Below are positions 590-3,856 of a stretch of 47,091 nt of DNA, piece by piece (positions within the stretch are counted from its first letter, which is position 1; each line of letters starts with the position of its first letter). This DNA is from Escherichia coli (GTDB lineage Bacteria; Pseudomonadota; Gammaproteobacteria; Enterobacterales; Enterobacteriaceae): the NCBI RefSeq assembly GCF_003334255.1, contig NZ_QOWU01000042.1; one strand, written 5' to 3'. The translations under genes and the position numbers were made by a program. The notes below the pieces were generated by a model, which did not search any database, was not told where the DNA came from, and was given only the letters and a program-made list of their open reading frames with translations.

Positions 590-1015
590 TTAAGCTGCTT
601 TTTTACTGATACGTTTATTCCGTGAACCAGCTGCTGGCTTAAATAAAAAAAGTCGGTTTTCCCATTCGTGCCATTCTTGCGGTGCGTTTTCAGTGAGTCG
701 ATCGCAGGCTTCATCCCATGCTTTCCGGTTGATGTAAAGTTCGGCGTTTCCGCCAGGCTTGAGAGGGTCCGCCATGTACACAGCGGGTAATTTCCCTGCT
801 TTTGCCATGCTCACGATGGCGTCAACGGTCTTGCCGATATACATCGCAAACCCTTCTTTTGACAGGAGATGAGAAGGGTTTTGTGAAAGCCTGATTTCTT
901 GGCGTTCAGGGGCTTTGCGCCCGGTCTTTTGGTGTGCGGTTTCTGGCGCATCTGTCAACTGATCGCACTGTGTTTCGGCAGGCGATTCAGGCGCGTTTTG
1001 AGTGACTTCTTGCAT
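590..1015 (-). CDS. P2 Cox-like excisionase/regulator with N-terminal extension
   Basis: C-terminal half (GFAMYIGKTVDAIVSMAKAGKLPAVYMADP...AW) resembles P2 Cox (EFAKLIGKSTGAVRRMIDKGKLPVIDMTDP...AW) as recalled. Start chosen at the ATG at 1013..1015, preceded by GGAGG; the ORF track extends to 1096. Confidence 0.55.
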   Translation of the reverse strand: MQEVTQNAPESPAETQCDQLTDAPETAHQKTGRKAPERQEIRLSQNPSHLLSKEGFAMYIGKTVDAIVSMAKAGKLPAVYMADPLKPGGNAELYINRKAWDEACDRLTENAPQEWHEWENRLFLFKPAAGSRNKRISKKAA

Positions 1016-1872: not shown

Positions 1873-2868
1873 ATGTCGATTAAGAAGCTCGCTGATGGCA
1901 AATACTGTGTGGACGTGCGGCCTGCTGGATCTGAAGGAAGAAGATTTCGGCGGCGATTTCCTACCCGTGGTGAAGCGGCGATGTATGAACGCCATGTTCT
2001 GACGCATTATCACGATAAGGACTGGGTCGAAAAACCTATTGAACGTAAAGCGTTAAGCGATCTTCTGGAACTGTGGTGGGTGTACCACGGTAAGAATCAT
2101 CGTTATGGCGCGATGAATCGGGTCAGAATTGAAGCGGTTCTTCGTGATATGCAAGAGCTTGGTATTAACAGAAGTGACCACTTAACCCGAAAAAATATTA
2201 TCAGATATCGCCTTGAATTAATGAATCGCGGAATTAAGCAGTCAACGGTAAATCGTTATTGTGCAATGATGAGCGGTTTCTTTGAAAAGCTGATTGATGT
2301 TGAAGAGTTTGTGGGTGATAACCCATTTCACGAGATACGCAAGCTAACAATTAATCAGCCGGAAATGGCTTATCTTGCACATGATGATATTCCCAGGCTA
2401 ACCGCACTTTTATCTGGCGATAATCTTAAGGCTGTATTGTTAAGCCTGGCTACAGGCGGACGCTGGGGTGAAGTTGCCAATATTAAAGGTGAACACATAA
2501 TTGGTGGGAAGGTTATTTTCATGGAGACAAAGAATGGATCGCGGCGGGTTATTCCTATAGCTAAAGATCTTGAATCTCTGATTAAAGTCAAAGCGACGGG
2601 AAGATTAATGAACCCCAGTTATGCGATAGTCAGAAGTGCAATAAGGACTGTGCGGCCTGATTTACCAGTCGGTCAGTCTGTGCATGTTTTACGGCACACA
2701 TTCGCAACTCATTTCATGATAAATGGAGGGAACATTATTACCCTTCAGCGTATTTTAGGGCACAGCACAATTCAGCAGACAATGACCTATGCGCACTTTG
2801 CACCTGATTATCTCCAGGACGCGGTAAGGTTCAATCCGGTTGCGGAGTTGTCCAGATTTTGCCCATAA
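1873..2868 (+). CDS. int: P2-like tyrosine integrase
   Basis: N-terminus MSIKKLADGKYCVDVRP and C-terminus HVLRHTFATHFMINGGNIITLQRILGHSTIQQTMTYAHFAPDYLQDA parallel P2 Int as recalled, including the catalytic R, H-x-x-R and Y. The ATG at 1873 is preferred over the ORF-track start at 1837. Confidence 0.85.
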   Translation: MSIKKLADGKYCVDVRPAGSEGRRFRRRFPTRGEAAMYERHVLTHYHDKDWVEKPIERKALSDLLELWWVYHGKNHRYGAMNRVRIEAVLRDMQELGINRSDHLTRKNIIRYRLELMNRGIKQSTVNRYCAMMSGFFEKLIDVEEFVGDNPFHEIRKLTINQPEMAYLAHDDIPRLTALLSGDNLKAVLLSLATGGRWGEVANIKGEHIIGGKVIFMETKNGSRRVIPIAKDLESLIKVKATGRLMNPSYAIVRSAIRTVRPDLPVGQSVHVLRHTFATHFMINGGNIITLQRILGHSTIQQTMTYAHFAPDYLQDAVRFNPVAELSRFCP

Positions 2869-2958
2869 ACGGGGACTAAATGGCACGATTTTGAACCACT
2901 TTGAACTTGTAACTATTTGATATATCAAGGGGTAGTGCGGTACACGCTACCCCCTTAT

Positions 2959-2982
2959 GCCACCTTCGGGTGGCGTTGTTTT
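2959..2982 (+). terminator. intrinsic terminator downstream of int (gccacc-ttcg-ggtggc followed by a T-rich run)
   Basis: 6-bp GC stem with a ttcg loop followed by gttgtttt, read in sequence. Confidence 0.5.
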
Positions 2983-3325
2983 ATGCGATGTATCTCGCGA
3001 TTTTTTTTTGTAACTTTTCCATCTTTTGCTTTTCTCTCCGAGCCGCTTTCCATATCTGCAATCGCATAAAAAACTCTGCTGGCGTTCACAAATGTGCAGG
3101 GGTAAAACGGGGGCACGCTTTGAACGGTGAGTATGAGTGAGGTCGGCTAACTTCCAGCAAGTGGCTATGAACAGCAAAATGGTGGTCGGGTTTGCTTGTT
3201 CTTACCGTTCAAGCCTTGCAACCGCTGAGAATAATGATGGTGGAATAGAGAGTTTATTTATCGCGGGCATAAAAAAACCCTTACTAACCGAAGCCCGGCG
3301 TTCAGGGTTATTGCGCTAGAAGAAC

Positions 3326-3856
3326 TTATTTATTCTTTGCGCGCTCGAAGGAAGCAACGATTTCAGCTTTAGCGGCTTCTGCGTTTTCCCAACCTTCAAC
3401 TTTCACCCACTTGCCTTTTTCGAGGTCTTTGTAGTGCTCGAAGAAGTGAGCGATCTGCGCTTTCAGCAGCTCTGGCAGATCGTTAACGTCTTTAATGTGA
3501 TCGTATTCTTTGCTCAGCTTTGTGTGCGGAACAGCAATCAGTTTCGCATCTTCACCGGCTTCGTCGGTCATTTTCAGAACGCCAACCGGACGGCAACGGA
3601 TCACAGAACCCGGCTGCAGCGGGTACGGAGTCGGGACCAGTACGTCAACCGGGTCACCGTCCAGAGACAGGGTGTGGTTGATGTAACCGTAGTTGCACGG
3701 ATAGAACATCGCGGTGGACATGAAGCGGTCAACGAACAGTGCGCCGCTCTCTTTGTCGATTTCGTATTTGATCGGATCTGCGTTAGCCGGGATCTCAATA
3801 ACAACGTAGATGTCTTCCGGCAGATCTTTACCCGCAGGGACGTTGAGTAAGCTCAT
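3326..3856 (-). CDS. ppa: inorganic pyrophosphatase
   Basis: 176-aa ORF; translation matches E. coli Ppa as recalled ([34 protein letters not shown]...). Confidence 0.95.

Follow-up and report, generated by a model that had tools for sequence, protein, structure and literature searches.

An integrase gene in the Escherichia coli contig NZ_QOWU01000042.1 is followed, within 115 bp of its stop codon, by two short direct repeats, a palindrome and two potential hairpins. This concentration of motifs raises the question of whether the region between int and the downstream gene ppa is a prophage attachment site and, if so, which of its sequence elements could serve the recombination machinery. We analysed the whole stretch of DNA in which this region is found (47,091 nucleotides, hereafter called the window), for which an original prediction had marked positions 2869-3000 as a candidate attachment-site region. 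This region is almost certainly the integrase-side junction of a P2-family (P88/Xuanwuvirus-like) prophage that resides in the terminator hairpin of the host gene ytfP. The host DNA is E. coli chromosome, and the P2-family prophage end fills positions 1-2958 of the window. The features considered here are the following.

59-508, open reading frame of 145-149 aa beside cox, matching phrog_2266 (function unknown; E 1e-31)
590-1015, minus strand, cox, 141 aa, matching phrog_272, with 35% identity to P2 Cox over 68 aa
1873-2868, plus strand, int, a P2-family tyrosine integrase of 331 aa that reads toward the attachment site (stop codon 2866-2868)
2849-2856 (TGTCCAGA) and 2860-2867 (TGCCCATA), plus strand, putative integrase arm-type sites (P' arm in P2 terms), 11 bp apart, lying over the last int codons and the stop
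2876-2910, plus strand, candidate binding module for Cox (excisionase/RDF), with TTTGAAC at 2890-2896 and 2900-2906, one helical turn apart
2910-2922, minus strand, perfect match to the IHF consensus WATCAANNNNTTR, reading TATCAAATAGTTA on the minus strand and YAANNNNTTGATW on the plus strand
2917-2928, no strand assigned, 12-bp perfect palindrome TTGATATATCAA, the left half of which belongs to the IHF consensus
2929-2953, no strand assigned, GC-rich stem-loop between the IHF site and the core, with a 9-bp stem that includes one G.U pair and a 7-nt loop
2959-2975, no strand assigned, attachment core GCCACCTTCGGGTGGCG, 17 bp common to attL, attR and attB
2976-2982, plus strand, T-tract of the ytfP terminator, host DNA
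2984-2999 plus T9, plus strand, stem and T-tract of a second host terminator, identified by the terminator scan
3326-3856, minus strand, host gene ppa, followed by ytfQ and ytfR

Genes at the prophage end

The integrase shares 44% identity with P2 Int over 324 aa (E 2e-104) and matches phrog_1 integrase (E 4e-65), and its alignment with P2 Int shows both the box II HxLRHT motif and the tyrosine region TYAHF. Its sequence is 100% identical to that of Int from complete prophages in strains 154 (L001) and DETEC-S792 (L004). Phage P88 carries an Int with 80% protein identity, and the corresponding int DNA is 72% identical, with differences at 55% of third codon positions. The core of Cox, which comprises approximately residues 45-107 and corresponds to the region of homology with P2 Cox, is identical in the window, in the heteroimmune relatives L008/L009 and in P88, whereas the C repressors differ among phages with this identical Cox core. 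The DETEC-S792 prophage carries a hypothetical-protein gene of the same size, and in the equivalent position, as the open reading frame at 59-508.

Two C-type repressor genes are arranged in tandem between cox and int. The first immunity module (intergenic region plus C1, 1016-1395) shows 100% identity to the only such module in the JNEC-KY202 prophage. After it come a remnant of a cox start codon and Shine-Dalgarno sequence (about 1396-1420), a second intergenic region and C2 (1507-1806), and this C2 module is that of strains 154 and DETEC-S792. The C1 and C2 proteins are identical in their C-terminal 33 aa and different in their helix-turn-helix parts. Both C modules together occur in 0 of 5,426 complete E. 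coli genomes, among which the best matches to the window reach 92% coverage and carry no second C gene. The tandem immunity modules (1016-1806) may constitute a doubly immune recombinant. An inverted repeat is located just upstream of cox (1032-1055 and 1416-1440 in the window) and is also found in the cox-C intergenic regions of L001-L009, where its position is kept and its sequence differs (GGCCCCT...AGGGACC in the C1-type module versus GGTGCTA...TAGCACC elsewhere).

The prophage junction and its attachment core

The phage/host boundary lies at 2958/2959. From 2959 on, the window has matches in all 5,426 of the complete E. coli genomes, only 33 of which match the int side as well. At empty sites the match starts 12 bp past the ytfP stop codon, both in genomes that lack chpSB (EC590) and in those that carry it (K-12). 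Homology to empty sites begins at 2959 rather than nearer ppa, and both the junction and the core fall inside the region that was originally proposed. Between the attachment site and ppa, the window (2976-3325) and many other strains lack the toxin-antitoxin genes chpS-chpB, which are present in K-12 and others (L003 2000-2875); the prophage is found in both backgrounds.

The window itself contains one junction, and the length of the core is taken from relatives with identical Int. The prophages of strain 154 and DETEC-S792 both sit between ytfP and ppa, and alignment of their junctions with empty sites, which the original prediction had proposed as a check, yields GCCACCTTCGGGTGGCG (2959-2975) as the only sequence common to both junctions and the empty site. 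Among the 5,426 genomes, this arm is present in 35 independent lysogens, and all those examined have it between ytfP and ppa. The same ytfP target is common to phage P88 and 30 P88-type prophages, and excision of P88 at this core is known (PMC5285337). The literature searched contained no link between ytfP and prophage integration.

The published 14-bp attP of P88, GCCACCCGAAGGTG (PMC5285337), is the reverse complement of window positions 2961-2974. Core position 2 is T in P88-type phages, and position 17 is A in the P88 attP and in cq9. At P88-type junctions the phage T at position 2 stays on the int side, whereas the phage base at position 17 is found on the other side. Because the phage bases at these two positions partition by junction, strand exchange is placed within 2961-2974. 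The cq9 lysogen carries an additional variant at core position 13 of the far junction; if this variant is phage-derived, exchange would be confined to 2961-2970.

In P2 nomenclature, the junction at 2849-2975 would be termed BOP'. The far junction, at the other end of the prophage, would read ytfP stop codon, 12 bp, GCCACCTTCGGGTGGCG and CGAAAA, with TTGTCCACA about 47 bp on.

Candidate integrase and IHF sites

The original prediction expected integrase arm sites as well as the crossover core within 2869-3000. The core is located there, but the putative arm-type sites lie upstream, at 2849-2867 in the 3' end of int. The arm consensus of P2 type is tgTGGaCa (PMC3448106), and relative to its reverse complement TGTCCACA the first site TGTCCAGA matches at 7 of 8 positions and the second, TGCCCATA, at 6 of 8. 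In the P2 record, the corresponding part of the int 3' end contains TGTCCACAcagTGTCCACA, with the annotation 'Int P' arm'. In the stretch GAGTTGTCCAGATwTTGCCCATAA, none of the 8 third-codon positions differ between the window and P88 (P ~0.002).

The int-distal arm was read in relatives, in which the core is followed, after about 47 bp, by TTGTCCACATTTTGCCATAG with unchanged orientation. This distal arm comprises TGTCCACA plus a degenerate second unit, oriented as in P2, and it aligns base-for-base with the footprinted IHF site and P-arm repeats of P2. Each side of the core carries two or more direct arm-type repeats, those of the distal side as seen in relatives. Judged by sequence, the candidate arm-type sites are equivalent in both position and sequence to those of P2.

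Host-factor sites had likewise been expected in the region, and one candidate is present there, namely the perfect IHF consensus at 2910-2922. Six perfect matches to this consensus occur in the whole window versus 2.3 expected, and about 0.005-0.01 are expected per 90-bp arm. Among 8 related arms, substitutions are found only at 2914 and 2916, both of which are in the NNNN spacer. A sequence of the form TAAC-NNN(N)-TTGAT is present at the same relative position in L011, L012, L014 and L034, whose Int proteins are 51-53% identical. This pattern of conservation is consistent with a site at 2910-2922 to which IHF would bind.

The perfect 12-bp palindrome at 2917-2928 also exists as originally described. 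It is kept in DETEC-S792 and in P88-type arms, but it is broken in strain 154 (TTGATATATAAA) despite the identical Int. Its candidacy as a site for a dimeric protein is weakened by strain 154, in which TTGATATATAAA occurs with the same Int and Cox. Among the arms compared, the conserved element is the IHF consensus on the left half of the palindrome, not the palindrome itself.

Taken singly, the originally listed motifs are unremarkable in a sequence of this length. The window contains 8 perfect 12-bp palindromes versus 13.8 expected from a first-order Markov model (about 0.04 expected per 132 bp), and 8 direct repeats of 7-mers at 10/11-bp spacing versus 6.7 expected (about 0.02 per 132 bp). 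For TTTGAACNNNTTTGAAC with up to 2 mismatches, 0.6 occurrences are expected in the window. Because the individual motifs are at chance level across the window, support for their function comes from their clustering beside int and from the conservation of some of them in relatives.

A candidate Cox-binding array after int

The two TTGAAC repeats are located at 2891-2896 and 2901-2906, exactly as the original prediction had placed them, and the true repeat unit is the 7-nt sequence TTTGAAC, starting at 2890 and 2900. Binding sites for RDFs are typically direct repeats spaced one helical turn apart, as outlined in PMC7498355, and P2 Cox is known to bind both the Pc region and attP via phased boxes with the sequence TTAAA(G/C)NC(A/C) (PMC3936717). 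The footprinted Cox region of P2 spans 74 bp between the core and the int stop codon, which is the position that the module at 2876-2910 occupies in the window.

A counterpart of this module is found in the heteroimmune relatives L008/L009, in the intergenic region that separates cox from C. The two sequences are colinear, with 30 of 35 aligned bases identical and one 2-nt gap, and the ungapped part (2876-2906) is identical at 26 of 31 positions (84%). Alignments scoring as high were obtained with 0 of 500 shuffles for L008/L009, and with 1 of 500 for the P88 cox-C region. The similarity of the window arm to its own intergenic regions (IG1 and IG2) is not significant, and the arm is closer to the intergenic region of heteroimmune relatives than to its own. 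P88-type arms carry CTTAAGAC in place of the TTTGAAC repeats and show weak similarity to the module with no significant match, although the Cox core is identical.

An equivalent duality is observed in a sister clade (Citrobacter, Cedecea and Serratia; Int 51-53% identical), where T(T/C)TAGGG boxes with approximately 10-bp phasing occur in two places, the cox-C intergenic region and the sequence right after the int stop codon. These boxes lie at about 2520-2630 and 3990-4020 in L011-L014 and L034, and they are likely to be Cox boxes of another specificity. Thus, on the basis of the colinear cox-C match, the identical Cox core, the P2 precedent and the sister-clade duality, 2876-2910 is probably a Cox-binding array, a reading in which we place moderate confidence.

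The TTGAAC repeats were also considered, and rejected, as arm-type sites for Int. They carry no match to tgTGGaCa, the distal arm is without them, and the first copy varies among phages with identical Int, being TCGAAC in DETEC-S792 and CCGAAC in strain 154. Their features fit excisionase (Cox) boxes better than Int sites.

Stem-loops and terminators at the junction

Two stem-loops flank the phage/host boundary. The first, at 2929-2953, had been described as a hairpin with a 7-bp stem; its location stands, but the stem folds as 9 bp. Its predicted stability is -15.5 kcal/mol on the plus strand (z -3.0) and -17.7 kcal/mol on the minus strand (z -3.6). P88-type phages carry a different stem (GGAGGCC/GGCCTCC) with similar stability at the same position. 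This comparison comprises only three distinct stem versions, which the MAFFT alignment A1 places out of structural register. A role as a classical terminator is not supported, since the hairpin is not flagged by the terminator scan and there is no T-tract on either strand, where the sequences that follow are CTTATGCC (plus) and GATATATC (minus). A search of Rfam with positions 2700-3400 returned 0 matches at E values up to 1. Together with the core hairpin, it could form a tandem structure at the 3' end of the C-int mRNA; alternatively, it could act as a barrier to inward transcription.

The second stem-loop, at 2959-2982, folds with a predicted dG of -13.4 kcal/mol (z -4.4), and the scan flags it as a plus-strand intrinsic terminator, in agreement with its original description as a terminator-like hairpin. 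It has the sequence elements of such a terminator, namely a GC-rich stem-loop followed by a T-tract after the end of a gene. Its stem-loop is the attachment core and, at the same time, the hairpin of the host ytfP terminator. The hairpin was located at 2957-2976 in the window, 2499-2518 in L002 and 4323-4344 in L004.

Positions 2976-3009 are 100% identical to empty sites such as that of EC590, and the empty site has both terminators. There, the core hairpin is scored as a terminator on both strands, 12 bp past the ytfP stop codon. In the integrated state, the int-side junction retains a terminator on the plus strand only, facing out of the prophage, and the ytfP-side junction retains one on the minus strand only, which also faces outward. 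Integration thus splits a bidirectional terminator and leaves the ytfP hairpin without its T-tract in lysogens.

When the phage is excised, CGAAAAT takes the place of the T-tract behind the core hairpin. A transcript of C and int would therefore meet a complete terminator, consisting of the core hairpin and the host T-tract, only when the prophage is integrated, and the 3' end of int mRNA might in this way be controlled by the state of the phage. We regard such control as improbable. If true, an equivalent of lambda sib retroregulation would exist in the P2 family, and the hairpin at 2929-2953 would contribute to it. The lambda sib element is located beyond attP.

Most P2-type Int relatives from other genera (L011-L031) carry an intrinsic-terminator-like sequence about 60-120 bp past the int stop codon. 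This distribution suggests that terminator hairpins are a common target of the P2-type integrase family.

A proposed architecture and its alternatives

These elements can be assembled into a recombination site of familiar design. Int would bind the two arm-type repeats in the last int codons (2849-2867), and the helically phased array at 2876-2910 would bind phage Cox, which would direct excision. IHF bound at 2910-2922, roughly halfway from the arm sites to the core, would bend the arm such that arm-bound Int reaches the core. Int would then exchange strands within 2961-2974 of the 17-bp core, beyond which host DNA begins at 2976. The junction position, the core, the homology of Int and Cox to their P2 counterparts and the equivalence of the arm-type sites in position and sequence are direct observations, and we infer the binding of IHF and of Cox as well as any role of the hairpin at 2929-2953.

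A simpler account holds that only the core recombines, and that the motifs between int and the core are the 3' end and terminator of the C-int transcript together with chance repeats. Single motifs are indeed about as frequent in the window as chance predicts, neither the TTGAAC repeats nor the palindrome is intact in every close relative with identical Int, and the two stem-loops are stable as RNA, the second being equipped with a host T-tract. However, P2-family integrases are heterobivalent and require arm and accessory-factor sites, which have been footprinted in exactly this interval of P2. In addition, the variation in the IHF consensus is confined to N positions, and 0 of 500 shuffles match the cox-C region as well as 2876-2910 does, such that this account is very unlikely to be correct. 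The prophage might also be defective and the junction a dead remnant that no longer recombines, as could be suspected from the mere 2.96 kb of phage DNA in the window and from an immunity region rearranged to carry two C genes in tandem. Against this stand the intact int, cox and two C genes, a core and arm elements without damage, and an Int identical to that of full-length prophages, and we consider this possibility unlikely.

Another alternative concerns the module at 2876-2910 alone, which might bind the immunity repressor C, or represent a copy of a promoter, rather than bind Cox. The module is similar to a portion of the early promoter/operator region, at which C acts too, and a -35-like sequence (ATGGCA/TTGGCA) can be discerned by eye within it. 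Yet its best match is in phages whose C helix-turn-helix differs from that of both C proteins in the window, whereas the Cox core is identical throughout. Promoter scans place the predicted Pe at the C-proximal end of the intergenic region, with the module outside it. The C operators of P2 flank the Pe -10 element, and by analogy C would occupy sites apart from the module, which would then lie on the cox-proximal side, where Cox binds in P2. Moreover, attP is bound in P2 by Cox and not by C. We judge a repressor or promoter function quite unlikely, and a Cox array remains the preferred reading of the module.

Comparison with known attachment sites

The original prediction had also called for comparison with attachment sites of the P2 family, and the arrangement seen here matches the P2 order of elements and contains the 14-bp P88 attP inside its core. 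The closest known system is P88 (Xuanwuvirus P88, NC_026014), which shares the host target, a hairpin 12 bp after ytfP, as well as the gene order cox, C, int, att. The two also have in common the arm-type element, the IHF consensus and the placement of a stem-loop. In contrast, its core departs from the host sequence at positions 2 and 17, which leaves 14 bp of identity versus 17 bp here, its stem-loop has another stem sequence, and its arm has no TTTGAAC repeats.

The elements of the P2 record (NC_001895) are ordered ogr terminator, Int P arm, IHF, core, Cox (74 bp) and Int P' arm. The order relative to int is the same in the window, with arm-type repeats inside the int 3' end, with about 75-90 bp between the int stop codon and the core that hold (here candidate) accessory-factor sites, and with homologous Int and Cox proteins. 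The distal arm, here read in relatives, likewise has a putative IHF site and arm repeats, which align directly with those of P2. P2 differs in its core and host site (locI/locH), in its cox-box sequence and in the size of Cox (91 aa in P2 versus 141 aa here). Moreover, the IHF site of P2 is on the other arm only, whereas an int-side IHF consensus and a GC-rich stem-loop are extra elements here. A search of contigs with Int recovered relatives with at most 53% identity, other cores and unalignable arms, and these were used for comparison of architecture only.

In outline, lambda attP follows the same logic, with a core and arm-type sites bridged by IHF bends and with an RDF that binds phased direct repeats on one of the arms. 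The two are unrelated in sequence, however, and the lambda core is not a terminator hairpin.

Implications

The site is an ordinary attachment site of the P2-type family, one already reported for P88. What is newly added is the map of the putative sites on its arm, which is incremental, as only the 14-bp core was described before. Its importance beyond annotation is small: the prophage boundary is fixed at 2958/2959, and what appears to be a terminator after int is host DNA that doubles as a recombination core. The base-level map of candidate Int, Cox and IHF sites could be of use in engineering P88-type phages or in employing the integrase as a tool. For the host, the physiological consequence is a minor one, in that lysogens have ytfP without its terminator, while outward-facing terminators persist at both ends of the prophage.
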